Below, piece after piece: positions 44,269 to 64,000 of a stretch of 64,000 nucleotides of DNA. Position 1 is the first letter of the stretch. Every line of letters starts with the position of its first letter. The DNA is taken from contig CAJTKU010000001.1 in assembly GCA_910577015.1 (NCBI GenBank), forward strand, positions 185,298-249,297. The letters run 5' to 3'. The DNA comes from an uncultured Lachnospiraceae bacterium. Lineage in GTDB: Bacteria > Bacillota > Clostridia > Lachnospirales > Lachnospiraceae. Both the position numbers and the translations under genes were made by a program. Under the pieces are notes generated by a model. The model did no database searches. It saw only the letters and a program-made list of their open reading frames with translations, and was not told the origin of the DNA.

Positions 44269-44304
44269 GAAAACGCCATAATTCTTATGAATTGTGGCGT
44301 TTTC
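44269..44304. terminator. 16-bp stem hairpin at the junction between host genes and the prophage-like element
   Basis: gaaaacgccataattc-ttat-gaattgtggcgttttc has 15/16 pairs. Flanking sequence is T-rich on the plus side. Confidence 0.5.
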
Positions 44305-46322: not shown

Positions 46323-46586
46323 CTATTCTGCCGGAAATTCAAAAACCTTGTTTTGCCGGTATGTTCCTGGTCTGATGGCTTGTGCGGCAATATCAAAGAA
46401 ATCTACCGTATAACACTCGTCTTTGTGCGCCTCGCAAAAATCTTTCAGCACGGTCAGGCACCTTTCTTTTGTCGGGTACTCTGCAATTTCTTCAAGGCAT
46501 CCGTCTGAAATACAGATTGTATGCCGTATCGTCTCGCCTTTTCCTTTGCGATCCACGCTTTCCTTATTTTGACTTACTATCAGCAT
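46323..46586 (-). CDS. Hypothetical protein (87 aa)
   Basis: ATG 46586 behind aaggagg. It overlaps the 3-prime end of the ParB-like gene by 23 nt. Confidence 0.5.
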   Translation of the reverse strand: MLIVSQNKESVDRKGKGETIRHTICISDGCLEEIAEYPTKERCLTVLKDFCEAHKDECYTVDFFDIAAQAIRPGTYRQNKVFEFPAE

Positions 46587-47940
46587 GGCTTTCCTCCTTA
46601 AATAAATCATGAGTACCCTCTGCCAGCTTGTAATATTCCTCCTTGCTATACGAAAAGCCGAACAAAGACAAGATTTCATCGAACTGCATAACCAGCTCTC
46701 CGGCTCCCTTGCGGTAAGTCGCATTCCATTCTGCAATGTCCTTGTCTGCGACTCCATTGGCGGCGTAAATCATCAGCTTATAGAGAAGTCCGATTGCATC
46801 ACGCTGCTTTTCATATGCGGCTTTTTCCTCGTCTGACTTATCATACAAAGAGGTTTCTCCGGTAATGAATCTCAGCATCACCTGCTCGCTCATCCATGAA
46901 CCGCACCCAACCATGACGCCAAACAGGCGCTCCATCACCGCCTCCAGCTTTTCGCTCTCAGGCTTAAACTTCTGCTCGATAGCCAGCTTTATGAAATCGG
47001 CCCGCTCTGCAGACATTTCTTTCTGCATGGCTTTAATCTGCCGCTTTCTCTTGTCCTGGGCCTTCTGTTTCATCTCATACTCGGACAGCTCACGCTTTTC
47101 TTTCCCTTTCTTCTTGATGATTGCGAACGTCCTCCACCAGACCACATAGAACAGCTCTTCCTTCGCCGCCTGCGTCTTGCACCCCAACTTATCCTTGACC
47201 TCCTTATCCAGCTCGAACTCCTTAACCTTTTCCCACTTTCCGCCGTACTGCTCATTCTCGGCGCCTTCCGGAGCAGGCTTGATTCCCTCGGCCTTACAGA
47301 GTTTGATATAGGCTTTCTCATGCTCTTTGCGTTTGATTTCCTCGTATGCACTTCTCGCTCTCTGCGCCAGGTTATTGGAGCTGGTGGACTCCTTCAGGAT
47401 TTTATCCCTAGTCTTTACATCCGGGATCTTCTCCAGCTCGTACAAATCCTTTAATGACAGCTGGAACCCCTCGTCTTTCTCCTTCTCCTGTAGCACTTTC
47501 CGGTTGAGCTTTGCGATGTTCAGCCGGTGCTTTACCGTTGTTCTGGAGAAACCGGTCTTTTCTGCGATACTTTCCTCCGTCTCTCCCAGGTCGAGCATCA
47601 TCTGGAAACCGTTCGCCTGTTCCCAAATCGTCAGATCATTACGCTGCATATTCTCTTCCAGCATAATTGACATCTGCTCCCTCGGAGTCAGATTCTCGGC
47701 AATCTGGCAAGGAAACTCTGCTACCCCTACCTGGATACCTGCCGCATATCTCCTGTGTCCGATGATTGTCATGTACTCTCCCGGCTCGCCCTCCACCGGA
47801 ATCACCGTCAAATTCTGCAGGATTCCATTCTTCTTAATGGACTCCGCCAGCTCCGTCAAATCTCCCAGGTCTTTCCTGGGATTCTCCGGATGCGGTCTGA
47901 TATGCTCAGCCGCAATGTAAATAATCTGTTTTTCCGCCAT
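46564..47940 (-). CDS. ParB/Srx-like nuclease domain protein
   Basis: 458 aa. IRPHPENPRKDLGDLTELAESIKKNGILQNLTV...IIGHRRYAAG is the ParB N-terminal domain. The long helical C-terminal part is not recognised. Confidence 0.8.
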   Translation of the reverse strand: MAEKQIIYIAAEHIRPHPENPRKDLGDLTELAESIKKNGILQNLTVIPVEGEPGEYMTIIGHRRYAAGIQVGVAEFPCQIAENLTPREQMSIMLEENMQRNDLTIWEQANGFQMMLDLGETEESIAEKTGFSRTTVKHRLNIAKLNRKVLQEKEKDEGFQLSLKDLYELEKIPDVKTRDKILKESTSSNNLAQRARSAYEEIKRKEHEKAYIKLCKAEGIKPAPEGAENEQYGGKWEKVKEFELDKEVKDKLGCKTQAAKEELFYVVWWRTFAIIKKKGKEKRELSEYEMKQKAQDKRKRQIKAMQKEMSAERADFIKLAIEQKFKPESEKLEAVMERLFGVMVGCGSWMSEQVMLRFITGETSLYDKSDEEKAAYEKQRDAIGLLYKLMIYAANGVADKDIAEWNATYRKGAGELVMQFDEILSLFGFSYSKEEYYKLAEGTHDLFKEESHADSKSK

Positions 47941-51831: not shown

Positions 51832-52754
51832 TGTCCTGCCTCCTGCATTTCTTCCAGCTTTTTGATAACCAGCTTTAAGGCATACCTGGCATTATCTGTA
51901 AGCTGCCTCTGCCATGCCGACTGGCTCGGTGCCCAGCGGAAACCATTGCTCTTTAATACCTCCCGCACTTCCGGCTCAGGCTTTCCGTCAAAGAACAGCT
52001 GGAGCCTCATTGCCTCCGTATTCTCAACGATCTTGAAGAACTGATTTTCTGTTTCCAGCGTTCCTCTTTCCTTCGTGGCCTGCAATTCCTTTATGCGCCC
52101 CTCTATCCGGTGGATGTTGGCGTTATTATTCTGGAGGGCATAATCCGGATAACCAACCCTCCCGCAGAAGTCCGGCTCGCGCAAATCCTTAATCTGCTCG
52201 TCCGAATATCCCATGATTCTCAGCTGTTCATCGCCTTTCTCCGTATCTTTCAAGCGGACCGCCTTATTCGCCGCTTTCATGCGCTCCTGCATATCTTTCA
52301 GATTTTCCAGTTTTTCTTCCAGCCTTTCGATTGCGTCCTCGTCACTGGACTTAATCAGCTCCTTTCCGTGCAGGATGCTCTCCATTTTGCTGAGGATGCC
52401 CTGCGTTTCATTGAAAAACTGATGATTCTTGTCCCACGCCTGGTTCTGCTTTTCCTTTTTTCTCACAGGGAAATTCCCGGCACCGGAAATCATCACAGAC
52501 GGACACATACACCCGATATGTATATCCCGATTCATGTACTCTGCCATTCTCTTCGAGTACCTGCCCGCCATGCTATATACCCGGTCTGCCTGGTCCGGCC
52601 TCGCCTCCACAATTTGGTCTGCCAATTCATAGGCCCGGTCAACATATCCCTTGTACTCTGCCGTCTTGCTGCCCTCCTTGTAATCGCTGAAAGACATCAT
52701 CTGGTGCGCTGTCCTTGCAGATGCCTCATTGATACTGTAATAAACTCTCTCCAT
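51828..52754 (-). CDS. DUF3560-like protein
   Basis: 308 aa. The C-terminal RLQLFFDGKPEPEVREVLKSNGFRWAPSQSAWQRQLTDNARYA matches my recollection of the DUF3560 C-terminal module of phage/ICE proteins. Confidence 0.55.
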   Translation of the reverse strand: MERVYYSINEASARTAHQMMSFSDYKEGSKTAEYKGYVDRAYELADQIVEARPDQADRVYSMAGRYSKRMAEYMNRDIHIGCMCPSVMISGAGNFPVRKKEKQNQAWDKNHQFFNETQGILSKMESILHGKELIKSSDEDAIERLEEKLENLKDMQERMKAANKAVRLKDTEKGDEQLRIMGYSDEQIKDLREPDFCGRVGYPDYALQNNNANIHRIEGRIKELQATKERGTLETENQFFKIVENTEAMRLQLFFDGKPEPEVREVLKSNGFRWAPSQSAWQRQLTDNARYALKLVIKKLEEMQEAGQ

Positions 52755-52951
52755 TACGCTGTTTCCTCCAATCTTTCTCTGCGCTTTACCATGCGCACAT
52801 CACATTTTCCGTATGCCTGCAGGTTCTCCCGGTACTCCCGGAAAGAACGTCTTGCATCTTCCCTTGTGTACTCGCTGTTCTCCACTTCCCATCCGTATCC
52901 GTAATTCGTTTCAATATCCCAGCGATCCCTTGTCTTTCTCTGATATGCCAT
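52754..52951 (-). CDS. Hypothetical protein (65 aa)
   Basis: SD ggtggtg upstream. TAATG overlap with the downstream gene. Confidence 0.45.
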   Translation of the reverse strand: MAYQRKTRDRWDIETNYGYGWEVENSEYTREDARRSFREYRENLQAYGKCDVRMVKRRERLEETA

Positions 52952-52953
52952 AC

Positions 52954-53262
52954 CTACACCACCTTTAATGAAATAATGATATGCTCCAACGTGAAACTCT
53001 TGTCGCTGTCATACAGAGTACAGATGCCGCTTTCAAACTTCCAGAATGCCGCCTTACTCCAGCCCAGGTATGAACCCCTGCCATTGTTTGCCAGCGTTTC
53101 CCGGCTGTCCGGCTGATCCGGAATGATGCTATAGAACCCTGTGCTGTCAGCAACATTCACTCTCCTGCGCTGTCCTACGCATCCCTGCCGGGCATGGGCG
53201 ACAATTTCAAACTCTGCCCCCTTTACAAGCGTTCTCTTCAACTGCGCCAAATTCTTAACCAT
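52954..53262 (-). CDS. Hypothetical protein (102 aa)
   Basis: SD aggagg upstream. Confidence 0.5.
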   Translation of the reverse strand: MVKNLAQLKRTLVKGAEFEIVAHARQGCVGQRRRVNVADSTGFYSIIPDQPDSRETLANNGRGSYLGWSKAAFWKFESGICTLYDSDKSFTLEHIIISLKVV

Positions 53263-53272
53263 GCTTTTCCTC

Positions 53273-53614
53273 CTATTCCCATCCCGGCTGGCAATCTTCC
53301 GGAGCCGCCCACGGATGTTTTGCTATGTATCTTGCAGAGACTTCGCCCCTCCAGGCTTTCATCGTAAACCGATCATTCATCAGAATGTTGAATCTGGTGG
53401 TACCCATGAGAGCCTTTAACTCATTCCTCAGTACACTGATTTCATCGTTCATCTTTTCCAATGTCTGGTGGAGTCTGCTGCCTACATCGATTCCCCCTCC
53501 AAACCACATGGCCTCGTCTGCCATCAGCGTCGCCTCACACTCCAGGCCGTCATGCTCTGCGAATTTCTGTAATTCCGTCCTCGTCCACATGATTTTCTGG
53601 TGCATTCTCAGCAT
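53273..53614 (-). CDS. Hypothetical protein (113 aa)
   Basis: SD aaaaggag upstream. Confidence 0.5.
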   Translation of the reverse strand: MLRMHQKIMWTRTELQKFAEHDGLECEATLMADEAMWFGGGIDVGSRLHQTLEKMNDEISVLRNELKALMGTTRFNILMNDRFTMKAWRGEVSARYIAKHPWAAPEDCQPGWE

Positions 53615-53694
53615 ATAGCCACACTCCTTTTCGATTATGCGTTTTCAATCATCTCTCTAGCTCTCAACTGCGAGCTTTCGGGGTAAAAAAATAC

Positions 53695-53910
53695 TTAGTT
53701 CCAGTCCAGCTCTCTAAGTTCCTGGGCCTTATCTTCATGCCCATTACTCTCAAGCAACCAGATGTCAAACTGTACCGCCGCATCCCCAAATTCAACCCCG
53801 CAATCATTGAGGCTATACACTTCATACATCACTTCCTCTACCATCTGGCAGTTGCCGTTTGCTACCAAACTGCCACAATGCTCTGCACTTTCATCTGGCC
53901 TAATTTCCAT
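53695..53910 (-). CDS. Hypothetical protein; start unclear
   Basis: The 71-aa ORF has no SD at 53910. A 38-aa ORF with a strong SD (ATG 53978) overlaps it in another frame. See findings. Confidence 0.3.
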   Translation of the reverse strand: MEIRPDESAEHCGSLVANGNCQMVEEVMYEVYSLNDCGVEFGDAAVQFDIWLLESNGHEDKAQELRELDWN

Positions 53911-53995
53911 TCTGAGGACTCTATATCATGGCTATCTCTCTCGTTCAAAGCTGCTCTGTAATCGTTCATATCGTACATATCCTTACCTCCAAGTG

Positions 53996-54081
53996 CTTTA
54001 TTTGTTGTTTGATTATGTATATATTATACTTCGCAACTGCGAGTTTGTCAATAGTTTTACTTCTCAAAATACAAATTTTTT
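53996..54081. repeat. 86-bp promoter-operator cassette, copy 1
   Basis: Near-identical to 62414..62499. A 64-nt run is identical (54007-54070 = 62425-62488). Confidence 0.9.
54023..54051 (-). promoter_or_regulatory. Consensus sigmaA promoter TTGACA-N17-TATAAT with dyad in spacer (copy 1)
   Basis: The minus strand reads ttgaca aactcgcagttgcgaag tataat. An A/T-rich tract lies upstream. Confidence 0.75.
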
Positions 54082-54431
54082 CAGATTTTTCTCAGAATAA
54101 TCTCGTATCCAAGAGCCTTCGCCATCCGGTAAAAGCTGTCGTATCTCATGTTCACAGTTCCCCGGTTCAGCGTTTGGCTGACATTCTGCCTTACGCATCC
54201 CATCTTTTCCGCAAGCTCTTTCTGGTTCACATCCTCTCTTTCCATGATCTGCCGGATAGTGGCCGCTGCATTTTCTCCGCTCAACTCACCTTTCAGCTTT
54301 TTTACTGCCTCCCGGAGAGCCTCCGCATCAACCCTCCAAATATCTTCCGGATCGTCCTTGTCTATCATGCTTTCGCAATGCTCTGACAGGCTTTCCAGCT
54401 GTCTGATGATTTCCCCTATAGTCATACTCAA
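54081..54431 (-). CDS. XRE-family HTH protein (candidate phage regulator)
   Basis: 116 aa. The C-terminal half is IRQIMEREDVNQKELAEKMGCVRQNVSQTLNRG. The stop codon abuts promoter cassette copy 1. Start is TTG 54431 or ATG 54425. Confidence 0.7.
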   Translation of the reverse strand: MSMTIGEIIRQLESLSEHCESMIDKDDPEDIWRVDAEALREAVKKLKGELSGENAAATIRQIMEREDVNQKELAEKMGCVRQNVSQTLNRGTVNMRYDSFYRMAKALGYEIILRKI

Positions 54432-55243
54432 TTCTGCACCTTCTTTCCTCTCCTTTGTCGCGCCGCCACTTTTACTTTTGCAATCGCAACGCCCGCCCTC
54501 GTAAATTCCGCATTGGAAAACCTCAGATTGCTGCGATTCAGCTCCAGGTTCTCCTTGTTATCTATCAGCGCCAGATTATCAATATCGCAATTATCCTTAT
54601 TCCCATCCAGAAAACTTACCATCTTGCCCTCCGGGATCGGGCCGTTATGCTCTTCCCATACTTTCCGATGGACGAACTCGAATCGCTCCCGCTGTGTTCC
54701 TTGCTCCTGCACTTTCCGGATTAGATAACCGTCAGTGGTATGCGTGTACTCTCCGACCTCCATGTGATTCGCAGGAACATTTCCCTTATGAAACATCGTA
54801 GCCTTGCATTTCTCGTACTGCTCTGGACTCATTTTCTTCCCTTTGTTTGCAGGTTCGTCTCCCTCCTTAAACCGGCAATCCAGACCGCTTACAATGTCAT
54901 GGTTCTTTTTGTATGCCCTACACTGAGAGACAGAAAACTCTATGCCAAAATGCTCTGATACTGCTTTCGCGATTTCCCCGGCCTCTTTCCCCTCGGCAAT
55001 GCTCCGGATGTATTCCTCCATCCCCTCCGGGTATTTCGCAGAATATCCTTTCGGATTCCCCGTAGGTGTACCGCTTTTGAAACCATACCGGCTCTTTGCG
55101 CCCTTAACTATGCTCTCCGTGAATACCATGCCGTACTTCCTGTCATACCCCTGCTGGTTGATAAGGATTGTCAATTCCTTTGTGGTCCGGCCTGCGGTAT
55201 TCTCACGCATCCAGTCCACTACTTCTACCGGCCATTTCCACAT
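54428..55243 (-). CDS. HNH endonuclease (HNH_3-like) with N-terminal accessory domain
   Basis: 271 aa with HRKVWEEHNGPIPEGKMVSFLDGNKDNCDIDNLALIDNKEN. Confidence 0.8.
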   Translation of the reverse strand: MWKWPVEVVDWMRENTAGRTTKELTILINQQGYDRKYGMVFTESIVKGAKSRYGFKSGTPTGNPKGYSAKYPEGMEEYIRSIAEGKEAGEIAKAVSEHFGIEFSVSQCRAYKKNHDIVSGLDCRFKEGDEPANKGKKMSPEQYEKCKATMFHKGNVPANHMEVGEYTHTTDGYLIRKVQEQGTQRERFEFVHRKVWEEHNGPIPEGKMVSFLDGNKDNCDIDNLALIDNKENLELNRSNLRFSNAEFTRAGVAIAKVKVAARQRRGKKVQN

Positions 55244-55246
55244 CCG

Positions 55247-55489
55247 TCAACCCTCCCGAACCTCCAGCATTTCCGGTACGGCTTTCTTTCTGTCATAGCC
55301 GTATTCGTCCATATGCTGCATAGCCTTCAGCTGGAGTTCTCCGGTCTTGATGATCTGCTCACCTACCTTTGCCATCGCCTCAGACCGCCTTATCTCAGCC
55401 TCCAATTCATCGCCTTTTAAATCTTCATCGCCCAACTTCTCCAGCTGAGCAAACAGATGATTATTCAAATCTCCGAGCGTATTCTTCAC
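55247..55489 (-). CDS. Hypothetical coiled-coil protein (80 aa)
   Basis: GTG start at 55489 behind gaggggg. Confidence 0.45.
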   Translation of the reverse strand: MKNTLGDLNNHLFAQLEKLGDEDLKGDELEAEIRRSEAMAKVGEQIIKTGELQLKAMQHMDEYGYDRKKAVPEMLEVREG

Positions 55490-55861
55490 TTACGACACCC
55501 CCTCTGCCTCTGATAATCCAGGAAACTGCTGCATCAGAAAACTTTTCATTGCCTCCGCATCATCTGGAGGGAGTATCTCCGGCCCCCTCTGGATGCCGAA
55601 AAGGACATCGCCCGCTATCGTACAGCCGTGAATATCGGCTCCATACAGATAGGATGCTGCCGGATTGTCCGAACGGTTCTTGATAAGCCCCGATTCGTCT
55701 ACAATCATCACAACATAATCCTTGAACAAATCATACATGCGCTGCGTCTTTACTGTTTCCGTGCAATCAGCTCCGATCATTTCTCCCTGTGCCTCTACAT
55801 TCCAGGGAACCTCCACAACCGAAATGTGGTTATCCGTGGTAATTTTCACTGTCTTAGCCAT
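55490..55861 (-). CDS. DUF3846-like protein
   Basis: 123 aa. The layout KITTDNHISVVEVP...VVMIVDESGLIKN...IAGDVLF resembles DUF3846 of phage/conjugative elements (by eye). Confidence 0.45.
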   Translation of the reverse strand: MAKTVKITTDNHISVVEVPWNVEAQGEMIGADCTETVKTQRMYDLFKDYVVMIVDESGLIKNRSDNPAASYLYGADIHGCTIAGDVLFGIQRGPEILPPDDAEAMKSFLMQQFPGLSEAEGVS

Positions 55862-55875
55862 ATCGCATACCTCCT

Positions 55876-56568
55876 TTAATCCATACCGCTATTCATCAGT
55901 GCCGCCACTCCTTTGGAATGGTATTCATCAAACCAGCGCCAAATTTCTTCTCTGTCCGTCCCTATCTCATAGCCCATGAAACGATCAGTGAGACAGCCAT
56001 CATCATCAACTGGCACATCCCCAAGCCTCCCCCAGAGAAACTCCAGCACTTCATCGGTTAGCGTGATTTCCGCTCTAACCCTCTCAACCACATTTTCCAG
56101 AGTAGTATTGAACGATGTATTGCAATCCTCCCATTTGTCGAACATCTGGAGGATTTCTTCCATCACTTTTTCACTGTTTGTCATATACTCATACAGCCAC
56201 GGCTCCATGCCGCCCGTCTCATACAATCCGAAAATATATTCCCCTATATCTCTGGAACGATCAATCTTCTCCATTTCCCGGCTGATCCTTCCCATAAGCG
56301 GCTCCGAAATATCCAAATCATGCTCAGTGATATAAAACTTCGCATACTTTCCGCTGGCGTTCATGGCCTCATAGTACCTTTCCCCGCGTTCCTCCTGGAT
56401 ATAGTCGCACATTTCCACATACTCTCTGGCCTTGCTTTCGGCTATTTTATCCAACCGTTTTTGCAACGGTTCGATATCCGCAGACACTCCGAGAACTATC
56501 ACTCCGTCCTCCGACTGGCTATCCCATGCGCCGTGCAATACATACAACAAAATTTTGCTATTTCCCAT
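55876..56568 (-). CDS. Hypothetical protein (230 aa)
   Basis: Fits the coupled array; acidic. Confidence 0.5.
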   Translation of the reverse strand: MGNSKILLYVLHGAWDSQSEDGVIVLGVSADIEPLQKRLDKIAESKAREYVEMCDYIQEERGERYYEAMNASGKYAKFYITEHDLDISEPLMGRISREMEKIDRSRDIGEYIFGLYETGGMEPWLYEYMTNSEKVMEEILQMFDKWEDCNTSFNTTLENVVERVRAEITLTDEVLEFLWGRLGDVPVDDDGCLTDRFMGYEIGTDREEIWRWFDEYHSKGVAALMNSGMD

Positions 56569-56929
56569 TATCCTTGACCTCCTTTATCTCTTCCCATTCC
56601 ATACATAAAGTAGAAACCAATCTCTTTTTGAACACTGCCTTGCTGGTGTCGTAGTCCTCATTCATCCAGCCTTTGCTTATGTACTCCTGCAACCGGTTCC
56701 GGCATAACTGCTCTGTCTGGACTGCCCTGTTGACCTGCTCATATCTGCCACGACTCCGGCTCCACAGGAATGACGCATACTCGTATTCCCCTTTCTGCTC
56801 CTGGTATTCGAGCATCCGGATGCCAGACTGTTCAATCCATCCCATTTCATCCTCAAAGCTCCCGCCAGACTCAGCCAGTTTTTCTTTATCTACTTCCAGA
56901 ACCGCCACCATTCTCACTTTTTCACCCAT
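56558..56929 (-). CDS. Hypothetical protein (123 aa)
   Basis: ATG 56929 (MGEKVRMVAVLEV). The longer ORF-track start overlaps the upstream gene. Confidence 0.4.
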   Translation of the reverse strand: MGEKVRMVAVLEVDKEKLAESGGSFEDEMGWIEQSGIRMLEYQEQKGEYEYASFLWSRSRGRYEQVNRAVQTEQLCRNRLQEYISKGWMNEDYDTSKAVFKKRLVSTLCMEWEEIKEVKDNGK

Positions 56930-56939
56930 TCCCTTGCAC

Positions 56940-57368
56940 CTACCCTTCGATGTTGAAACCGGTGTAATCCATGAGGTCCTGCATTTCCTGCTCAAACATT
57001 TCTTCGTAAATCTCTTTCTTGTTGCTGTCACAGTTCAAATGCGTATCGAGACAATTCACATAATATGTGAAATCATTCTGAGGGCTGAGATTATGCCGGC
57101 GTATCGCCTCCAGTTGCTCATATCCCGCCTCTGTCAGCGTCCCTTCGTACTCTTCGGTCTCCAGCCTTTTCTTTTCTGCTTTAATCGCCTCGTCCATGCG
57201 GAAGATACCCTCCTTAAAGATTTCTGCCATGATTCCGTTTAAGGTAAGCTCCACCCCCTCGAACTGCATTTGCTCAACGATCTTAAACATATCCGCCTCT
57301 GAATCGTCCAGTATGCTCAGATCATCTACGCCACAATTTAGAATTGCTCTGATTAAATCATTTCTCAT
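56940..57368 (-). CDS. Hypothetical acidic protein (142 aa)
   Basis: SD aggagg upstream. Confidence 0.5.
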   Translation of the reverse strand: MRNDLIRAILNCGVDDLSILDDSEADMFKIVEQMQFEGVELTLNGIMAEIFKEGIFRMDEAIKAEKKRLETEEYEGTLTEAGYEQLEAIRRHNLSPQNDFTYYVNCLDTHLNCDSNKKEIYEEMFEQEMQDLMDYTGFNIEG

Positions 57369-57378
57369 AGCCTGCCTC

Positions 57379-57669
57379 CTACAAATAAGATTTTCCGTAT
57401 CTCTTCCGGAACTCTTCCCTGGTGCCGATCCGGCCCTCGAAAATTGCCTGTCCCAGCATCTTTGACAACTTCTCTGCCATCGGGTTATCGTGTACCCGGT
57501 TCAGCTTGTCTCCCATGTTATGACAGTTATTGCAGATGGGAACTTTCAAGCCGTCTTTCTCGCTCAGCTCCCTGCCCGCCGTTCCGAAAATAAGATGATG
57601 TTCCCCCTCTGCCTGTCGGCCACAAAAGAAACATATCCCTTTGTACTCTGTAACAATACTTTTGCTCAT
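57379..57669 (-). CDS. Small HNH-type zinc-finger nuclease-like protein (96 aa)
   Basis: CFFCG...EGEHHLIFG...PICNNCHN matches the Cys-X2-Cys / HH / Cys-X2-Cys-His pattern of minimal HNH proteins. Confidence 0.55.
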   Translation of the reverse strand: MSKSIVTEYKGICFFCGRQAEGEHHLIFGTAGRELSEKDGLKVPICNNCHNMGDKLNRVHDNPMAEKLSKMLGQAIFEGRIGTREEFRKRYGKSYL

Positions 57670-57678
57670 GTCTGCCTC

Positions 57679-57741
57679 CTATTTCTTTTTCTTCTCCATC
57701 CCCATGAATACCAAAAATGCCAACACCACTATTGCCGCCAT
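57679..57741 (-). CDS. 20-aa hydrophobic micro-ORF
   Basis: ATG 57741 behind aggagg gives MAAIVVLAFLVFMGMEKKKK. Confidence 0.3.
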   Translation of the reverse strand: MAAIVVLAFLVFMGMEKKKK

Positions 57742-57750
57742 ATTTGCCTC

Positions 57751-58176
57751 CTATCCGTAAATCACATCACCGAACAGCGCATACTGGATGATACAGTCTG
57801 CGGCTCCTGCATCAATATTGCAGGGGTCTATGTTCAGTTTCCCGGTATAAACTCCGATGCGGTTTGTTTCCCGGTCAATACAGCCCGTATTTCCGGCTGC
57901 AATGTACTTTTTCAGCCCTTCAATGAATTTCTCTTTGCTGAGGGTATACGACTTGTTTTCCTCTGCATCATGCAGAACCAATTCTCCTCCTCTGCTGATC
58001 TGGTCGCTCGCATACTCTCCGAGATAGTCTCCCTTGGCCTCGGCTTGTCTGCACCAGTAATTGATTCCCCCCTCCAGGGCCGAAACCATGATGTCGTCAA
58101 TGTCCTCATTGCGGACTCTTACATCAAGCGCACAATTCAAAACCATGCAATCCACAACCTCCAACTTTTCTTCCAT
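57751..58176 (-). CDS. Hypothetical protein (141 aa)
   Basis: TGATG overlap with the upstream gene. Confidence 0.5.
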   Translation of the reverse strand: MEEKLEVVDCMVLNCALDVRVRNEDIDDIMVSALEGGINYWCRQAEAKGDYLGEYASDQISRGGELVLHDAEENKSYTLSKEKFIEGLKKYIAAGNTGCIDRETNRIGVYTGKLNIDPCNIDAGAADCIIQYALFGDVIYG

Positions 58177-58574
58177 CAGTCATTACCTCCTTCATATTCC
58201 GCCCCGCAATATGGGCACTTCGTTTCTCCATAGCAGTTGAACATCTTCCCGCACTCTTTGCAGGTATCAAGCTCTCCGTTCCTGAGCCAATCTTCCAGCA
58301 GACTGCTTACATGCTGCCAGTCAACCGCCTCGTAGACCTCTTCTGCTAAATCCGTCTGTCCGTTGCACTCCTGCAGGATGCTGTTTCTGGTGTACTTCGT
58401 ATCCGACAGCTCCGGTATGTAGCAAACCCTGTCCGGGTGTTTCGTATCATAGAAAGCCTCGTCGCTCTTGAAGATCATCCCCTGCCCGTAAAACTCCCGC
58501 TGGATTACTTCCCCCTTTCCGTTCTCGTCCGGCGGAGTATAGCGTCCCACCAGCAGATACTTTCCATCAGTCAT
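58176..58574 (-). CDS. Hypothetical protein with C-terminal zinc ribbon (132 aa)
   Basis: CKECGKMFNCYGETKCPYCG at the C-terminus. Confidence 0.5.
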   Translation of the reverse strand: MTDGKYLLVGRYTPPDENGKGEVIQREFYGQGMIFKSDEAFYDTKHPDRVCYIPELSDTKYTRNSILQECNGQTDLAEEVYEAVDWQHVSSLLEDWLRNGELDTCKECGKMFNCYGETKCPYCGAEYEGGND

Positions 58575-58962
58575 CTTCGTCCTCTACCTCCATTTCCCGC
58601 AATGTCTGCGACAATTTCAGAATCATAGCGTCAATTTCCTCCGCATCCTTTACAAGCTCCCGTATAGACGGTACCCCGGAAATGCCATTCCTTCTTGCCT
58701 CGACCCACATTTCAACATGCTCGTCAATATCAAAATCCTCATAGTAGGATTCCAGGCTATCCCGGAAACTACTGCACTGATCCTCAGCATCAAAATCAAT
58801 TATCATGCTGAAATCTTCTCCTGCCGGGGAGTGCTGGCCCATTTCTACATACGTTCTGTTATTCTGGCTCTCTTCGATCCATGCACTCGACCACCAGCCA
58901 AGTTCCTCTGCTTTCGCCAGCAGAATTTTCATTCCTGCAGACAAGCCTTTATATTCTTCCAT
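58567..58962 (-). CDS. Hypothetical acidic protein (131 aa)
   Basis: SD ggagggg upstream. 8-nt overlap with the downstream gene. Confidence 0.5.
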   Translation of the reverse strand: MEEYKGLSAGMKILLAKAEELGWWSSAWIEESQNNRTYVEMGQHSPAGEDFSMIIDFDAEDQCSSFRDSLESYYEDFDIDEHVEMWVEARRNGISGVPSIRELVKDAEEIDAMILKLSQTLREMEVEDEDD

Positions 58963-58965
58963 CCA

Positions 58966-59202
58966 TCACCCCTCCACGTCTGCGTAGTACGCATCAAAGG
59001 CAATCCCAGCCTCCACCATTTTCGCCTCCAGGAAGTTTCCGTAGCACCAGCCTTCGCCCTCTTCCCAAAAAGCATCCCAGGCTTTCTTCAATACCTCGCT
59101 TGCCCTCTCCTTATCTTCCGGGCTTACCAGAAATATGCAATCCATCCACTCATTCGTGCTGGACTGTACTCTGATGCAGCCGCCTTTCATTTCTTCAACC
59201 AT
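58966..59202 (-). CDS. Hypothetical protein (78 aa)
   Basis: SD ggaggt upstream. Confidence 0.45.
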   Translation of the reverse strand: MVEEMKGGCIRVQSSTNEWMDCIFLVSPEDKERASEVLKKAWDAFWEEGEGWCYGNFLEAKMVEAGIAFDAYYADVEG

Positions 59203-59214
59203 AACCGCTACCTC

Positions 59215-59601
59215 CTAAATGTAATAACAGCTGAAATTCCAATGATGCCCGAACTCATAGTAAAGCCCATACTTCTTGAAAATCGCATCAAACTTATTTC
59301 TGATTCCCTGAAACATACCGTAGTAGAGCATTTCGCATACCATGCCCTCGAAACTCATGCTGAGGATATGATCTGGATTGACATATTCAAAATATGTCCT
59401 GGGGTCCTCATTCTCCCGTACTACCAAGTGTTCTCGGTCATTGTAATAGAATTTTCCTGTCTCCTTATCGTAGGTGGTAAAGCACTTACCGTTAAAGTAA
59501 ATATCCACATCAACCCACATTTCATGCTCCAGCAGAAACTCTCTGATTTCGATTGCCAGATTTTCAATTCTTTCTGATGTCAGTTTTGCCGCTTCATTCA
59601 T
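59215..59601 (-). CDS. Hypothetical protein (128 aa)
   Basis: ATG 59601 (MNEAAKLTSERIENL) overlaps the stop of the upstream 59-aa ORF (ATGA). Confidence 0.45.
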   Translation of the reverse strand: MNEAAKLTSERIENLAIEIREFLLEHEMWVDVDIYFNGKCFTTYDKETGKFYYNDREHLVVRENEDPRTYFEYVNPDHILSMSFEGMVCEMLYYGMFQGIRNKFDAIFKKYGLYYEFGHHWNFSCYYI

Positions 59602-59777
59602 TCTGCTGTCACCTCCCTTACCATTCCCCTGTTTCTCTGACGGGCCTTCTTTTTCAAATTTCTTTTCCATCTGCGAATCGTCACAGCCTTTGTGTGATTT
59701 CTGGAGAAACAGTAATCATCCAGGACATACCGCCCATGCTGCTCGCGCTCTCCGTATGCGTGCATTTTTCTCGCCAT
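59598..59777 (-). CDS. 59-aa highly basic protein (below ORF-track cutoff)
   Basis: MARKMHAYGEREQHGRYVLDDYCFSRNHTKAVTIRRWKRNLKKKARQRNRGMVREVTAE. It fills the gap exactly and is coupled by ATGA to the next gene. Confidence 0.4.
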   Translation of the reverse strand: MARKMHAYGEREQHGRYVLDDYCFSRNHTKAVTIRRWKRNLKKKARQRNRGMVREVTAE

Positions 59778-59779
59778 CT

Positions 59780-59935
59780 CTACTGATTCGCCTCCTTTCT
59801 TCTCTCCTTTACCAGAACCAGAAGTGTTGCCCGGTCCATTCCCAGGCTTTCAAGCTCCCTCTCAATGCGTTTCGTAACCGCTTTGTTTCCAGCTGTTACC
59901 GCCACTTCATACTGCCTGATGTATTCCTCCAGCAT
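59780..59935 (-). CDS. 51-aa helical protein (below ORF-track cutoff)
   Basis: ATG 59935 behind ggaggg gives MLEEYIRQYEVAVTAGNKAVTKRIERELESLGMDRATLLVLVKERRKEANQ. Confidence 0.4.
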   Translation of the reverse strand: MLEEYIRQYEVAVTAGNKAVTKRIERELESLGMDRATLLVLVKERRKEANQ

Positions 59936-59941
59936 ATTTCT

Positions 59942-60430
59942 TCATCCCTCCAATCCTACATACTCCAGAATCTTTCGGCGGGCAAACTTCCCGATTTCTT
60001 CCAGATAATCTTTCTGGTTCCAGTCGGTACCCACCTGCGCCGCCTCAAAATCATCCGCCCACTGCACAAACAGCTGTTTCCAAGTGATGCTGTCAACGCC
60101 GCTCAGCCGCTTGTGTTCCTCCAACATACCAACATAAACAAGGGTAATTTCCACCAGGTTCTCAGATGCTTTGTTGTAAATCATTTTCTCCTGCCGCTGA
60201 TCCTGCAACTGGATTTCCTCTTTGAACTCATAACACATATTGACAGGCCCGCCGTTGACTTTACCCATTTTCCAGTCGGAACCATGAATGCTGAAGGCGA
60301 AATAATCATCCCCGTCTATCGTGAGACTCGCCATCGCCTCGTATCCGTTTCTTTTGACAGCCTCCGCAATTCCGTTAATCAGAGGCAAGACCTCCTGGCA
60401 AAGACCTCTGAATTTTTCTTTGTTATTCAT
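59942..60430 (-). CDS. Hypothetical protein (162 aa)
   Basis: Fits the coupled array. Confidence 0.5.
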   Translation of the reverse strand: MNNKEKFRGLCQEVLPLINGIAEAVKRNGYEAMASLTIDGDDYFAFSIHGSDWKMGKVNGGPVNMCYEFKEEIQLQDQRQEKMIYNKASENLVEITLVYVGMLEEHKRLSGVDSITWKQLFVQWADDFEAAQVGTDWNQKDYLEEIGKFARRKILEYVGLEG

Positions 60431-60593
60431 CCTTGACCTCCTTAACTGCGGTGACTACGCCGCCAACCAAATGCCATGCTTTAATGTACTGGTTTCCTTT
60501 GCTCCTTGCCTCCGACTCGTTCCTAGCCTCGAATATTGCAGGAGAGTTGCATCCAGATTCATCGTCATAAATAAACACCTGGTATTTCTTCAT
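60423..60593 (-). CDS. 56-aa protein (below ORF-track cutoff)
   Basis: ATG 60593 overlaps the upstream stop (ATGA). MKKYQVFIYDDESGCNSPAIFEARNESEARSKGNQYIKAWHLVGGVVTAVKEVKDE. Confidence 0.4.
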   Translation of the reverse strand: MKKYQVFIYDDESGCNSPAIFEARNESEARSKGNQYIKAWHLVGGVVTAVKEVKDE

Positions 60594-60976
60594 GCGTCCT
60601 TTGCCTCCTTTACAAAATTCTCTGCATCTTCCTGGCTCTCGAACCAGTCATGATAGATGTCTTTCCGGGCCGTACTCCTTGAATCATTCTCCGGCTTGCT
60701 GACCGCCTCAACCGTGCTGGTAATGTTTGCTACCACCTTGCCGTTATCATATACAGTCGTTGTCACACACCAGAATATTTTCATGCCTCCCAAAGTAAGC
60801 TCGTAGGCATCCGCCTCTTCTTTCGTCAGCGACTCACTGTACTCAATGAATCCCCATGCCTCCCGCCCAATTTCCTCACAGAAAGTCTTTGTGTCGAAAT
60901 TCTCAATCTTCTCAACTGCCGCTTTCTTAGGAAAGCCGCCCGGCATAACCGGGCGCTGTGTGCTGTAATATCTCAT
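60590..60976 (-). CDS. Hypothetical protein (128 aa)
   Basis: The N-terminal MRYYSTQRPVMPGGFPK resembles a module seen in large polyvalent proteins of Bacillota mobile elements; not assigned. Confidence 0.5.
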   Translation of the reverse strand: MRYYSTQRPVMPGGFPKKAAVEKIENFDTKTFCEEIGREAWGFIEYSESLTKEEADAYELTLGGMKIFWCVTTTVYDNGKVVANITSTVEAVSKPENDSRSTARKDIYHDWFESQEDAENFVKEAKDA

Positions 60977-60978
60977 GC

Positions 60979-61611
60979 CTACTCTTCCTCCTGGATCTCT
61001 TTCTTTTTCCTCCTGGATGTCGTTTTCTTTTCTCCGGTGGATGCCTTTCTGGTTCTCTTAGACTTTTCCGGCTCTTTATCCTCGCTTACAGGCTCAGGCA
61101 GCGTTTCTTCTGCCTTTTCCGTAGGAATTACCGCCTCTGCCTCTTCCGTCTGGATTTGAGCCGCCTGCTCCGGCAATCTCTCCTGCAGTTTGTACCGCTT
61201 ACGGATGGAGGCAATCATAAGTTCTACTTCCGCATTTACCAGCTCCTTATCCTCGTCCGTCAAACCTGCAGACAAATCCTCTCTCTCCTGCCAATACCCT
61301 GCGTTATCCAGAAACGCATCAATAATTCTCTTCGCCTTGTCATGCTTTACATCCCATTTCATCATAGTATTTTTCCTCCTTGTGCTTTCCGCATATTCTT
61401 TTACTATTGCCTTGCCCTGCTCTATCGCCTCCAGAATATCAACGCCGATCTGCTGGTAGAAATCCGGATGAACGATACACTCATAGGCTCTCGCCATCTT
61501 ACTTCTCTGCTCCTGCGTCACTCCGATATGAAAATCCTTCGCTATCTGCAACGCTTTCTTCCAGTCCTGCTCCTGAACCGCCTCTCTTACGATGTCCGAC
61601 TTCTTAATCAT
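60979..61611 (-). CDS. Hypothetical protein (210 aa) with E/K-rich tail
   Basis: ATGA overlap with the upstream 51-aa ORF. Confidence 0.5.
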   Translation of the reverse strand: MIKKSDIVREAVQEQDWKKALQIAKDFHIGVTQEQRSKMARAYECIVHPDFYQQIGVDILEAIEQGKAIVKEYAESTRRKNTMMKWDVKHDKAKRIIDAFLDNAGYWQEREDLSAGLTDEDKELVNAEVELMIASIRKRYKLQERLPEQAAQIQTEEAEAVIPTEKAEETLPEPVSEDKEPEKSKRTRKASTGEKKTTSRRKKKEIQEEE

Positions 61612-61763
61612 TCATCATCACCAGCCCCCGGCACTTCCAGCAAATCTTTCTCAATCCAGAACTTCTCGCCCAGGAAATCTACCTTCACTGCGTTTCTGCC
61701 GGTCTGGACCACCGTTGCCAGTGGTCCGATGTCCGGAATCTTTACCTGCGTTCCTACACTCAT
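61608..61763 (-). CDS. 51-aa protein (below ORF-track cutoff)
   Basis: The codon-by-codon read gives MSVGTQVKIPDIGPLATVVQTGRNAVKVDFLGEKFWIEKDLLEVPGAGDDE. ATGA overlaps at both ends. Confidence 0.45.
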   Translation of the reverse strand: MSVGTQVKIPDIGPLATVVQTGRNAVKVDFLGEKFWIEKDLLEVPGAGDDE

Positions 61764-61972
61764 GCCGCTACCTCCCGAATCTCTTTCAGTTTGTCAATGC
61801 TGGTATAGATACAGCTGCCTGTTGTGAAAACCAATCCATCCCAGCGAACATACTTCACAGTTTCGGTATTCATTTCTCCTGTGGCTCCGTCTTTCCACTC
61901 AACCTCGACTGTTTTTCCGTCTGCCAACATTTTCTCTATCTTCTCTACGTCTGCCATTCTAAATGTTTTCAT
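61760..61972 (-). CDS. Hypothetical protein (70 aa)
   Basis: SD aggagg upstream. Confidence 0.5.
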   Translation of the reverse strand: MKTFRMADVEKIEKMLADGKTVEVEWKDGATGEMNTETVKYVRWDGLVFTTGSCIYTSIDKLKEIREVAA

Positions 61973-61981
61973 CCCTTGCCT

Positions 61982-62134
61982 CCTACTGATCTTTCTTCTC
62001 TGCCGCTATAACTGCCAGCACAATCACTCCGTTTACCAGAACCGCCGCCAGATTCCCGGCTCTCATTCCGTCATGCAGGCCCACCATGAAATTGATGAAC
62101 AACAGCGCCTGCAGAAACCTCCGAATTTTTTTCA
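61982..62134 (-). CDS. 50-aa membrane peptide (below ORF-track cutoff)
   Basis: ATG 62134 behind aaggagg gives MKKIRRFLQALLFINFMVGLHDGMRAGNLAAVLVNGVIVLAVIAAEKKDQ. Confidence 0.45.
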
Positions 62135-62225
62135 TTGCCTTTCAGCCTCCTTTATGGTAGACTTATCAGCTGAGGGGGCTTTGTTTCTGCCCCGCTCAAC
62201 CGATAAGGAACTGTTCGCTTAGTTG

Positions 62226-62381
62226 CTAATCAATCCAACTCAGCACCGCCGTGACGATTGCCAAAAGCATTGTCACTATGGTTGCTATGATAGCGGTCAA
62301 ACTTTCATAGATTTGGAATCTGATCTGGCGCTCTTCGAGCAGTTCTTTTTCTTTCTGCCTTTTCTTCTTTCCTTTACCCAA
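62226..62381 (-). CDS. 51-aa tail-anchored membrane peptide, first gene after promoter copy 2
   Basis: TTG 62381 is 5 nt after aaggagga. It gives (M)GKGKKKRQKEKELLEERQIRFQIYESLTAIIATIVTMLLAIVTAVLSWID. Confidence 0.45.
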   Translation of the reverse strand: MGKGKKKRQKEKELLEERQIRFQIYESLTAIIATIVTMLLAIVTAVLSWID

Positions 62382-62413
62382 ATGGCGTCCTCCTTTCCGT
62401 TGGATTTAATCAA

Positions 62414-62499
62414 GCATTTGTTTTGTTTGATTATGTATATATTATACTTCGCAACTGCGAGTTTGTCAATAGTTTTACTTCTCAAAATGCAAATTTTTT
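62414..62499. repeat. 86-bp promoter-operator cassette, copy 2
   Basis: See copy 1. The offset between copies is 8418 bp. Confidence 0.9.
62441..62469 (-). promoter_or_regulatory. Consensus sigmaA promoter TTGACA-N17-TATAAT with dyad in spacer (copy 2)
   Basis: Identical to copy 1. It is the most upstream early promoter visible. Confidence 0.75.
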
Positions 62500-62637
62500 A
62501 CCCATCCAGCTCTCAACATTGAATTTATGGAGGATATGCTTATTGAAGGCTCAAATCTGGTGCATTTCATTTCTGCTCATTTTCTGTTCTTTATGGGAAA
62601 AGTCCGAGAAACCGCATAAATACGCTATCGCTTGTAA

Positions 62638-62715
62638 GATTTCTTACATGATTTCTCGTTAGATTTCTGGTAGGATTCTTTACTAGAGATAAGAGATAAA
62701 GAGATTAGAGATATA
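62638..62715. repeat. Phased short direct repeats (4 x GATTTCT/GATTCTT at exact 12-bp spacing, then 4 x GAGATWA) in an AT-rich tract
   Basis: The first repeat set starts at 62638, 62650, 62662 and 62674. The GAGATAA-type units start at 62686, 62693, 62701 and 62708. Confidence 0.8.
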
Positions 62716-62787
62716 TAATATATGGCCAGCTTTTGAAATCTGACCGCCTTTATTTGCTCTCATTTGAGTATTTTATTCACATATTCG

Positions 62788-62805
62788 TGTGGATAATGTG
62801 GATAA
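62788..62805. promoter_or_regulatory. Two abutting perfect DnaA boxes (TGTGGATAA TGTGGATAA = complement of TTATCCACA)
   Basis: Read directly at 62788-62796 and 62797-62805. Confidence 0.7.
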
Positions 62806-62823
62806 TCCTTGATTCAAAACGCA

Positions 62824-62852
62824 TTGACTTTTTCGCCAATTTGGGATATTAT
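62824..62852 (+). promoter_or_regulatory. Plus-strand promoter TTGACT-N17-TATTAT (candidate antitoxin RNA promoter)
   Basis: Hexamers and spacer were read directly. Transcription from it would run antisense into the 3-prime end of the small toxin-like ORF. Confidence 0.5.
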
Positions 62853-62858
62853 CTAAAT

Positions 62859-62985
62859 AGAAAAGGGCATCTGCTGGTAACAGACACCCTTTAGGCGCTA
62901 CCGATAGACGGTTGGCCCGATATAGTCAGCTTAGAAACAGCCGCTCAGTTTATCAGACCGGGGCGGCTATTTCTGTGTCTTTCCA
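62859..62985 (+). ncRNA. Candidate antisense RNA (type I antitoxin-like)
   Basis: Inferred only from the promoter at 62824-62852 and a possible hairpin/T-rich stop (agccgc...gcggctatttctgtgtcttt). The ends are not determined. Confidence 0.3.
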
Positions 62986-63068
62986 TGATGAAATCCTATC
63001 GTATATCCAATCCCAAAGCAGGTACCGCATAATGCCAGCACCGCTATCAGACCTTCCATAGTCAGCAT
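62967..63068 (-). CDS. 33-aa hydrophobic peptide, type I toxin-like
   Basis: ATG 63068 behind aaggaggg gives MLTMEGLIAVLALCGTCFGIGYTIGFHHGKTQK, a single TM helix with a basic tail. Confidence 0.5.
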   Translation of the reverse strand: MLTMEGLIAVLALCGTCFGIGYTIGFHHGKTQK

Positions 63069-63179
63069 AACACACGCCCTCCTTTCCTTTCGATTCCCTT
63101 ACAGGTTTCTATGTAATCAGAGGGTCACAGTCCCTCCGTAGAGGGCCAACCGCCTACCATCCTGGTAGCACCCACAAAA

Positions 63180-63208
63180 ATGCTACCACAGAAAACGGTT
63201 AATTTCAA
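63180..63208 (-). promoter_or_regulatory. Putative promoter of the toxin-like mRNA (TTGAAA-N17-TAGCAT, TGn-extended)
   Basis: The minus strand reads ttgaaa ttaaccgttttctgtgg tagcat. It predicts a ~100-nt 5-prime UTR. Confidence 0.4.
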
Positions 63209-63392
63209 CTGTTTTCCAGCATATATGCCTAAAAACTCGTACTCGGCTCGATGCCGGCCTTTTCTCTTTAGGCATAGGATAGGTACTAAAAACGTCTATC
63301 GTTTCTCAGGCACATTTCGTCAAATTACCCGGTCAAATTTTGGTTATTTTGTATATTGATTTTTTCTGCTGATTTGCTCCGCATTTACAACT

Positions 63393-63424
63393 AAAAAACG
63401 GCCCCGGCCATTACGACCAGGGCC
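63393..63424 (-). terminator. Rho-independent terminator ending the late/lysis transcription unit
   Basis: The minus strand reads ggccctgg-tcgtaatgg-ccggggcc followed by gtttttt, 8 nt after the stop at 63432. Confidence 0.75.
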
Positions 63425-63431
63425 ATTCCTC

Positions 63432-63605
63432 TTATTCCTCGGAATTGATAAAATCCTTACAGTCCAGTTTCCGGTATGCCTTTTCAAATGTCTCCTTCGG
63501 ACTCCAGGAAACATAACCATCCGGATATTTCACCCGGTACCCAGGACGTCCGTTCTTCTCCTGCGGCTCCGCTTTCACGATTTTTACGCCAATATAATTC
63601 TCCAT
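63432..63605 (-). CDS. Small phage protein (57 aa)
   Basis: ATG 63605 behind ggaggg gives MENYIGVKIVKAEPQEKNGRPGYRVKYPDGYVSWSPKETFEKAYRKL. A similar Y-x-SWSPK-x-FE-x-AYR motif recurs in small phage proteins (recollection). Confidence 0.55.
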   Translation of the reverse strand: MENYIGVKIVKAEPQEKNGRPGYRVKYPDGYVSWSPKETFEKAYRKLDCKDFINSEE

Positions 63606-63618
63606 GATTCCCTCCTGT

Positions 63619-64000
63619 CTACTGCGGAATGGAAAGAGTCCAGCCGACAACGATATAATTCGCTGTGATCTTCGGATATTTTCCCTTATTTGCTGCCACG
63701 ATTTTTGCAACGGTGGTTCCGTTTTTGTTTGCGATTGCAGAGAGCGTGTCACCGCTCACGACTTTATGCGTCCTCGTGCCAGATGATCCGCCGCTGGCTG
63801 ATGAACCAATATCCCCGGCATCCACCCAGCCGTAAACGGTGCTGGTGCTGTCGGTATGTACCAGATGGTACGGATGCCTGGCTCCCGCAGAAACAGCAGT
63901 AATTTTTGCCTTGCCAGGCTTGCAGGCTTTGGGAGACGTATCATTGGCGCTGGAATAGTGCTTCGTTCCGGTAAACGATACCACATCACCAATCTGGCAG
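63619..64000 (-). CDS. Cell-wall-binding C-terminus of a phage lysin (SH3-like segment + LysM); 5-prime part outside window
   Basis: The frame is open to position 64000 (..CQIGDMVSFTGTKHY..). The C-terminal LysM is HKVVSGDTLSAIANKNGTTVAKIVAANKGKYPKITANYIVVGWTLSIP. Confidence 0.7.
   Translation of the reverse strand, partial: CQIGDVVSFTGTKHYSSANDTSPKACKPGKAKITAVSAGARHPYHLVHTDSTSTVYGWVDAGDIGSSASGGSSGTRTHKVVSGDTLSAIANKNGTTVAKIVAANKGKYPKITANYIVVGWTLSIPQ

Follow-up and report, generated by a model that had tools for sequence, protein, structure and literature searches.

A candidate DnaA-linked replication origin in a Lachnospiraceae prophage without a recognisable initiator gene

The intergenic module at 62634-62805 of a Lachnospiraceae prophage is composed of an array of 12-bp-spaced units, a set of short tandem repeats that runs into an AT-rich tract, and three DnaA boxes. 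We give an even chance to the interpretation that the module is the replication origin of a temperate phage, a hybrid that would recruit host DnaA and at the same time offer a lineage-specific array to a binding protein. The interpretation is based on comparative and physical-chemical arguments, from which we infer DnaA binding, duplex unwinding, a repeat-binding protein, and origin firing.

The window, which is the whole 64,000-nucleotide stretch that was analysed, is part of a Lachnospiraceae (Acetatifactor-like) chromosome with a prophage extending from 44344 to beyond 64000 (Table 1). All prophage genes are encoded on the minus strand. Read in this direction, the genes of a holin and a LysM endolysin, the latter incomplete at the window end, are followed by a gene for a 57-residue protein, a terminator, the gap that harbours the module, a promoter, and an 18-kb early operon. 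The operon encodes small acidic proteins, a DarA_C protein, an HNH endonuclease, a DUF3560 protein, and a Rha-like protein, as well as a D12 methyltransferase, a ParB/Noc-family protein, an ASCH protein, and a PAPS-reductase-like protein. The small acidic proteins and the DarA_C protein look like an anti-defence set. The genes of the D12 methyltransferase, the ASCH protein, and the PAPS-reductase-like protein are clustered with that of the ParB/Noc-family protein (46564-47940 and 44995-45777), and the cluster looks like a DNA-modification or anti-defence group rather than a partition system.

The right end of the prophage is placed at 44344, where the homology to relatives ends and metagenome contigs break. 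In a relative (L283), a tyrosine integrase gene (16564-17784) is located on the opposite strand exactly at the equivalent point; no integrase was found at this end in the window. Past the end lie a short open reading frame (MAISAEKAYV...) and a bidirectional terminator (44269-44304). In L001 (1-938) and relatives, just past window position 64000, the tail genes that precede the lysis genes include one for a reverse transcriptase (RVT_1), which suggests that the phage family of the window carries a diversity-generating retroelement. No tRNAs were found in the window. A search of the whole window against Rfam gave zero matches at gathering scores and, in the gap, just one chance snoRNA match (E = 0.31). 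Among GenBank phages and PLSDB plasmids there was no relative of the gap or of the early operon, and matches were limited to the toxin-like cassette of the gap and a short chance stretch.

Table 1 Positions of features in the window, with emphasis on the gap between the lysis genes and the early operon
Feature	Position	Strand	Description
Chromosomal genes	455-39653	all -	GyrB/ParE-like, RecG, FakA, RodA-PBP fusion, U32 peptidase, ABC transporter, histidine kinase, TPP enzyme, MetH
ParB/Noc-family protein with long C-terminal extension	46564-47940	-	TIGR00180, 89.8 bits against a cut-off of 58.45
Early promoter cassette P1	62419-62500	-	Perfect TTGACA-17-TATAAT (62441-62469) whose spacer contains palindrome TCGCAgtTGCGA; directed away from the module and into the early operon
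Four 12-bp-spaced units	62634-62683		First a perfect palindrome GTAAGAAATCTTAC, the rest half-site-like; candidate binding array for a putative phage protein
Four 7-8-bp tandem units and AT tract	62686-62723		GAGATAA on the plus strand, WATCTCW on the minus strand, running into TATATAATATAT; candidate DNA-unwinding element
Short inverted repeat	62724-62745		GGCCAG...CTGACC, between the boxes and the AT tract
Third DnaA box, inverted	62773-62781	+	TTATTCACA, one mismatch at tolerated position 5, 6 bp from the pair
Two abutting perfect DnaA boxes	62788-62805	-	TGTGGATAATGTGGATAA on the plus strand; TTATCCACA TTATCCACA on the minus strand, aimed at the AT tract
Type-I-toxin-like cassette	62860-63236	-	Promoter 63180-63208, 33-residue open reading frame 62963-63064, terminator 62862-62892
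Conserved non-coding block, 160 bp	63237-63398		Between the late terminator and the module
Late-operon terminator	63397-63412	-	
57-residue protein gene upstream of the gap	63432-63605	-	

The array contains the four GATTTCT/GATTCTT units that an earlier note on this DNA had described at an exact 12-bp spacing, with GATTTCT starting at 62638, 62650, and 62662 and GATTCTT at 62674. Three copies of AGAAATC are thus spaced by exactly 12 bp on the minus strand. The Tandem Repeats Finder (TRF) reported a period of 12 with 3.7 copies and just 65% matches. The units are 65% alike over their whole length, share an exact 7-nucleotide core in three of four cases, and are shorter than classical iterons. 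The palindrome formed by the first unit is 14 bp long (62634-62647), and the 64 kb contain no second copy of it with fewer than three mismatches. The adjacent GAGATAA-type units, also noted before, start at 62686, 62693, 62701, and 62708 in the forms GAGATAA, GAGATTA, and GAGATAT (TRF period 7, 4 copies, 82%), and continue into the AT tract at 62712-62723. According to nearest-neighbour free energies, positions 62674-62723 form the least stable duplex in the prophage part of the window at lengths of 30, 50, and 100 bp. An AT-rich candidate unwinding element beside repeats, as is looked for in iteron origins, is therefore present both in the window and in the 47-kb genome of a relative described below.

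The two back-to-back perfect DnaA boxes of the earlier note were found again, and an inverted third box was added to them. Only three perfect DnaA 9-mers are present in the window, two of which form the abutting pair, and there are 30 matches with at most one mismatch, compared with 16.5 ± 4 in shuffled sequences. Among the 29 distinct relatives, 18 have the perfect form TGTGGATAA as their third box, with fixed geometry. Its mismatch in the window affects position 5, which is N, the sole free position, in the relaxed DnaA-box consensus TTWTNCACA. The viral sample consists mostly of near-identical contigs and yields 29 distinct box regions, in which substitutions fall on position 5 in 17 of the 31 occurrences and in 9 of the 22 variant types. 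The binomial p values of this excess, 3e-9 for occurrences and 3e-4 for types, are overstated, as the sequences are not phylogenetically independent. Such a pile-up is what selection for DnaA binding would predict. A chance origin of the box cluster was ruled out by the shuffle comparison together with the fixed geometry and the position-5 pattern in the relatives.

The box pair is identical in L002 and L184 despite their diverging flanks. In the window, 49 bp separate the AT tract from the nearest box, and the intervening inverted repeat corresponds to a perfect hairpin with an 8-bp stem in the same two loci. In L190, the place of the hairpin is occupied by a different stem sequence, GGTCATTTG..CAAATGACC, and the inverted repeat is missing from the IMG/VR sub-family.

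Relatives were assembled into two samples. Scanning of viral contigs for the 18-mer box pair returned more than 117 loci, about 29 of which share the gap architecture; this sample is biased, since it was selected by the boxes themselves. The loci with the shared architecture differ in the copy number of the heptads, keep the 12-mers and the promoter cassette, and show the third box in its perfect form. The unbiased sample was anchored on the 57-residue protein, not on the boxes, and was drawn from species-representative genomes and viral contigs. It comprises 91 evaluable loci from Acetatifactor and other Lachnospiraceae, mainly from mouse gut. The search for the same architecture in related phages that had been proposed earlier was thereby carried out, and 57 of the 91 loci proved to have the box trio with its geometry fixed and no box deviating by more than one mismatch. 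The geometry is kept with one weaker box in 5 loci, and the tandem pair is in reverse orientation in 2. Another 2 loci (L183, L197) have decayed boxes, with 3-4 mismatches each, but retain the heptads, palindromes, and promoter. The other 25 loci have different architectures or no boxes; a boxless sister architecture is formed by L189, L191, L192, L194, L195, L355, and L356. The decay of the boxes in L183 and L197 and their absence from the sister architecture argue that DnaA is not the sole initiator across the phage family.

Between lineages, the arrays belong to at least four sequence types. Type A is the palindromic AGAAATCTTAC, type B is AAATGTCYG, type C is TGTCCGTGGAC, and type D is GTCAC-based. 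Types A and B have heptads as the short tandem tract, types C and D have CCGTAA-/ACCGTC-like hexamers, and the arrays of types C and D are divided into two clusters. The units of all types measure 11-12 bp from start to start, and their number and position are kept. An array sequence that changes within a constant register would be as expected for cognate binding sites. A comparison of the repeat types over the initial 4-5 kb of the early operon gave no candidate for a type-specific protein.

The internal polarity of the module is fixed. On the strand where the boxes read TTATCCACA, they are always followed by the AT tract, then by the short tandem repeats, and finally by the arrays. The AT tract is positioned 30-50 bp past the boxes in type A phages and abuts them in type D. 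In three type D relatives with Roseburia-like hosts (L198, L371, L358), the order with respect to the flanking genes is the opposite one, and the boxes are turned round as well. Since the inverted cassette keeps its internal order and polarity, the boxes appear to be coupled to the AT tract, not to the promoter. This constancy despite flipping relative to the promoters is hard to reconcile with a promoter element and would be easy to accommodate for an autonomous cis site at which DnaA works on the AT tract.

The module is located between the lysis genes and P1, a sigma-70-type early promoter. The P1 cassette of about 84 bp has a second copy, P2, at 54000-54081. P2 is 96% identical, also contains a perfect TTGACA-17-TATAAT and the TCGCAgtTGCGA palindrome, and is without boxes or arrays. 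The relatives likewise have a second promoter cassette about 7 kb downstream of the first. The palindrome in the spacer is probably an operator, and the P1/P2 repeat probably causes the assembly breaks that occur near P1.

The main competing interpretation, which we consider unlikely, is that the module is instead a regulatory region for early transcription. The arrays would then be operators at which a lineage-specific, immunity-like regulator controls P1, and DnaA, as a transcription factor, would tie early gene expression or induction to the replication state of the host. DnaA is an established transcription factor in Bacillus, and a perfect promoter is located 165-365 bp downstream of the module. 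L183, L184, and L197 have additional copies of the palindrome about 125 bp upstream of P1, and in the three relatives with the inverted cassette the boxes precede the early promoter and stop about 36 bp short of its -35 hexamer. The differing repeat types of otherwise similar phages resemble heteroimmunity, and the boxes are dispensable in some relatives. In most relatives, however, the boxes are about 300 bp away from P1, and after inversion of the cassette they still point towards the AT tract and not towards P1. P1 and P2 each have a spacer palindrome of their own, P2 manages without boxes or arrays, and no regulator gene is found beside the arrays. Regulation would also leave the stability minimum and the short tandem repeats between the boxes and the arrays unexplained.

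A centromere-like or silencing site, at which the palindromic 12-14-mers serve as parS/OB-like sites for a ParB/Noc-family protein in episome partition or long-range silencing, is quite improbable. The operon does encode a genuine ParB-family helix-turn-helix protein (TIGR00180), the array includes one perfect 14-bp palindrome, and parC/tubC centromeres are resembled by the two-cluster arrays of 11-12-bp repeats. However, a type A phage and a type C phage with very different repeats have nearly the same helix-turn-helix in ParB (IAEKTGFS.TTV.HRLNIAKL), and ParB was rejected as the reader of the type-specific repeats because its helix-turn-helix does not co-vary with the repeat type. No ParA, ParM, or TubZ partner was found in the prophage part of the window or in the early operon of the relative. 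In addition, the element is integrated, its relatives carry an integrase, and the DnaA boxes and the AT tract would have no explanation.

The origin interpretation also has to account for the replication genes of the phage. In agreement with the earlier note, there is no recognisable initiator gene adjacent to the module, and Pfam, PHROGs, and NCBIfam revealed none anywhere in the early operon. With the same collections, neither the 18-kb early operon of the window nor the scanned parts of the relative yielded a recognisable initiator, helicase, primase, or polymerase. Rep, DnaD-like, helicase, and primase families were absent from the genes flanking the module and from the 18-kb operon, and thus no adjacent cognate Rep was found. 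The DUF3560 protein is labelled a 'primase' in PHROGs. This assignment finds no support in the fold, as a confident model of the protein (pLDDT 86) had no PDB match with E <= 0.001; its 5704 homologues are all unnamed. Sequence searches of the PDB with three early proteins gave no matches.

The genome of a near-complete relative, an IMG/VR contig of 47,328 bp, was tiled from four loci, with 202 bases missing. Its map starts with the terminase large subunit, which is cut by the contig start, and continues through portal, head, and tail genes, a region like a diversity-generating retroelement, and the lysis genes to the gap. The early operon follows and closes with the genes of ParB, a PAPS-reductase-like protein, a single-stranded DNA-binding protein (SSB), and two small genes. 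In another relative, a tyrosine integrase is encoded on the opposite strand directly past the end of the early operon. The SSB is the sole replication gene recognised in the 47-kb genome. The box trio is unique in this genome and accounts for its only three perfect DnaA boxes. At 607 bp, the gap is by far the largest stretch without a long open reading frame, and the only other gap of at least 150 bp measures 161 bp. Beyond the third box, at a distance of about 30 bp, begins the global stability minimum of the genome at 30, 50, and 100 bp. With the terminase genes about 17 kb distant on the circular map, a cos or pac site in the gap was rejected. It is very improbable that the module is a DnaA-anchoring signal other than an origin, either a T5-like pause or attachment site for the entering genome or a small DnaA-titrating cluster: the paired boxes of T5-like phages lie by the first-entering genes and off the mapped origins (bioRxiv 10.1101/866236), and the operon downstream of the module, rich in small acidic proteins and with a DarA_C protein, has an anti-defence look, but the T5 model is itself a proposal, nothing hints at a genome end here with the terminase genes so distant, three boxes make a weak titration sink, and the conserved polarity towards the AT tract would not be explained.

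For the module as an origin, we propose that DnaA-ATP would occupy the three high-affinity boxes (62773-62805) and, from the tandem pair aimed at 62686-62723, would help the opening of the adjacent least-stable DNA. A putative phage protein would bind the four repeats (62634-62683) cooperatively in the 12-bp register and provide specificity or control. Since the phage supplies at most an SSB, the remainder would be performed by host helicase loaders and the host replisome. Since some lineages dispense with the boxes, which are otherwise common, under selection, and directed at the AT tract, DnaA is probably a helper to the putative repeat-binding protein and not the sole initiator. A more general proposal is possible but doubtful in our judgement: widespread temperate phages of gut Lachnospiraceae without an initiator, helicase, or primase may share a mobile, invertible, cargo-attracting origin with an oriC-like box pair that is directed at an unwinding tract and offered to host DnaA, and with a swappable cassette of repeats in the 12-bp register that a putative new family of phage proteins would read for control.

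The gap that surrounds the module is the one large intergenic region of the phage family and a hotspot for cargo. It had been described in the earlier note as a non-coding gap between the late-operon terminator and the first early promoter, and both the position and the promoter proved right. The gap is only partly non-coding, because it contains an inserted 33-codon toxin-like open reading frame that comes with a promoter and a terminator of its own; it is to this cassette, and therefore not to the late operon, that the terminator next to the box pair belongs. The toxin-like cassette is cargo that lies outside the module. It is missing from about 29 relatives, in which the 160-bp block abuts the boxes directly, and the cargo of relatives consists of the toxin cassette or of reverse-strand open reading frames between the repeats and the early promoter (L191, L194, L195).

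The open reading frame of the toxin-like cassette encodes a hydrophobic peptide, MLTMEGLIAVLALCGTCFGIGYTIGFHHGKTQK, for which Pfam gave no family matches. In the 318-nucleotide mRNA, a long pairing between the 5' and 3' ends closes the fold and the Shine-Dalgarno sequence is sequestered (z = -7.05). A second allele of the peptide is present in L183, L185, and L197, and further matches to the cassette were obtained in a Lachnospira eligens megaplasmid and in gut phage contigs. The 5' untranslated region of the cassette is covered 10-20 times deeper than its flanks in metagenomes and very deeply in metatranscriptomes. A convergent plus-strand promoter (62824-62852) with a terminator-like hairpin is located near the cassette and may yield an antisense RNA to it.

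The 160-bp block is the best conserved DNA of the gap, with 80-93% identity among relatives and an invariant 26-nucleotide core, AAAATCAATATACAAAATAACCAAAA. It contains no convincing promoter, and a structured RNA was rejected on the basis of 0 compensatory pairs and a covariation term of +0.72. The block is missing in L183, L184, and L197, where the toxin cassette directly adjoins the gene of the 57-residue protein.

Several observations were made on sequencing runs that cover the gap. Metagenome contig variants diverge exactly at the AT tract (loose end 62715). A very small run (X14, 1.8 Mb of contigs) contains just positions 52649-64000 of the prophage, at a depth of 40-190. It includes an inverted joint between 52649 and 61525 and one contig that skips 62376-62961, and with it the entire module and P1; the joint and the skip may represent an amplification chimera or a rearranged variant. 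RNA contigs span 62632-63009 at about the depth of the operon in two runs, which could be due to DNA carry-over. The runs termed 'organism A' have flat depth and the appearance of mixed samples.

To our knowledge, the replication origins of gut Firmicutes phages are almost unmapped. Most origin predictions rely on an initiator gene close by. In the present phage, which has no recognisable replication genes, a conserved origin-like cassette is found on its own. It occurs in exchangeable specificity types and carries host DnaA boxes in most lineages, though not in all. If the cassette is an origin, it shows how such phages borrow the host initiation machinery, and it provides a cis element for building Lachnospiraceae replicons. 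The 12-bp arrays would then be a handle for a new family of origin-binding or regulatory proteins. If its function is regulatory instead, the control of early phage genes through DnaA sensing would be of interest all the same.

The module can be compared with several known systems. The basal unwinding system of chromosomal oriC consists of tandem DnaA boxes, a spacer, DnaA-trios, and AT-rich DNA, and the tandem arrangement of the boxes is the commonest (PMC8287927). Its boxes have at most two mismatches and often form a tandem pair, and at least three DnaA-trios (3'-NAN-5', preferably GAT) follow within 0-16 bp (PMC8287927). The module resembles oriC in its tandem consensus pair, in which two perfect boxes abut and the 5'-TTATCCACA-3' reading is aimed at the putative unwinding region. 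Unlike in oriC, the inverted third box occupies the position of the trios, and there are no three or more trios within 16 bp of the pair; no run of three was found in any frame of CGAATATGTGAATAAAATACTC (window) or CGCATTTGTGGATAAAATACGC (relatives).

Origins of the SPP1 gene 38 type, from Firmicutes phages with replisome-organiser genes, are similar to the module as origins of phages of Gram-positive hosts that combine repeats with AT-rich DNA. The same 18-bp box pair is located inside a replisome-organiser gene (Phage_rep_org_N/DnaB_2) in two unrelated viral contigs (L047, L024) and near RecT in a third (L113). These contexts indicate that the pair marks replication modules in other phages. 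In many unrelated loci with the 18-mer, the pair is followed by a GC cluster and then by TAC/TAT runs, which is the chromosomal DnaA-trio layout. In contrast to the origins of the SPP1 gene 38 type and to L047 and L024, the module lies in intergenic DNA that separates the lysis genes from the early operon, and belongs to a phage without such an initiator gene.

In T5-like phages, paired DnaA boxes are found among repeats and palindromes in a non-coding region by the first-entering genes, away from the mapped origins, and the boxes of this injection-stop region have been proposed to serve in pausing or attachment of the entering genome (bioRxiv 10.1101/866236). The module is similar in its paired boxes with repeats and palindromes and in its conserved non-coding position by early host-takeover genes. 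T5 differs in having eight boxes, with pairs 3 bp apart, inside inverted repeats of the terminal repeat (bioRxiv 10.1101/866236). Its origins are elsewhere, and it encodes replication proteins of its own.

Iteron theta origins that also use host DnaA (P1 oriR, F oriS, pSC101, RK2 oriV) combine direct repeats for a specific protein, an AT-rich unwinding tract beside them, and high-affinity DnaA boxes at one edge. The module resembles them in this layout, with its 12-bp-spaced units as the candidate binding repeats, and the origin of phage lambda shares the layout of iterons and AT-rich DNA. In some iteron plasmids, DnaA boxes are auxiliary and not always required, and the boxes of the module, which are dispensable in some relatives, would likewise be auxiliary. 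Unlike in iteron theta origins, the register of the module is 12 bp, as opposed to 17-22 bp, and includes a palindrome; 6-7-bp tandem repeats are located between the AT tract and the arrays; and no Rep- or O-like initiator gene is present in or beside the module, or recognisable in the phage. The theta-type layout put forward in the earlier note stands with respect to the conserved cassette and its AT-rich stability minimum, and has to be qualified for the short palindrome and half-site units, the boxes that some relatives dispense with, and the lack of DnaA-trios. Judged by its sequence, the module appears closest in layout to plasmid and phage theta origins with specific repeats, an AT-rich tract, and DnaA boxes.
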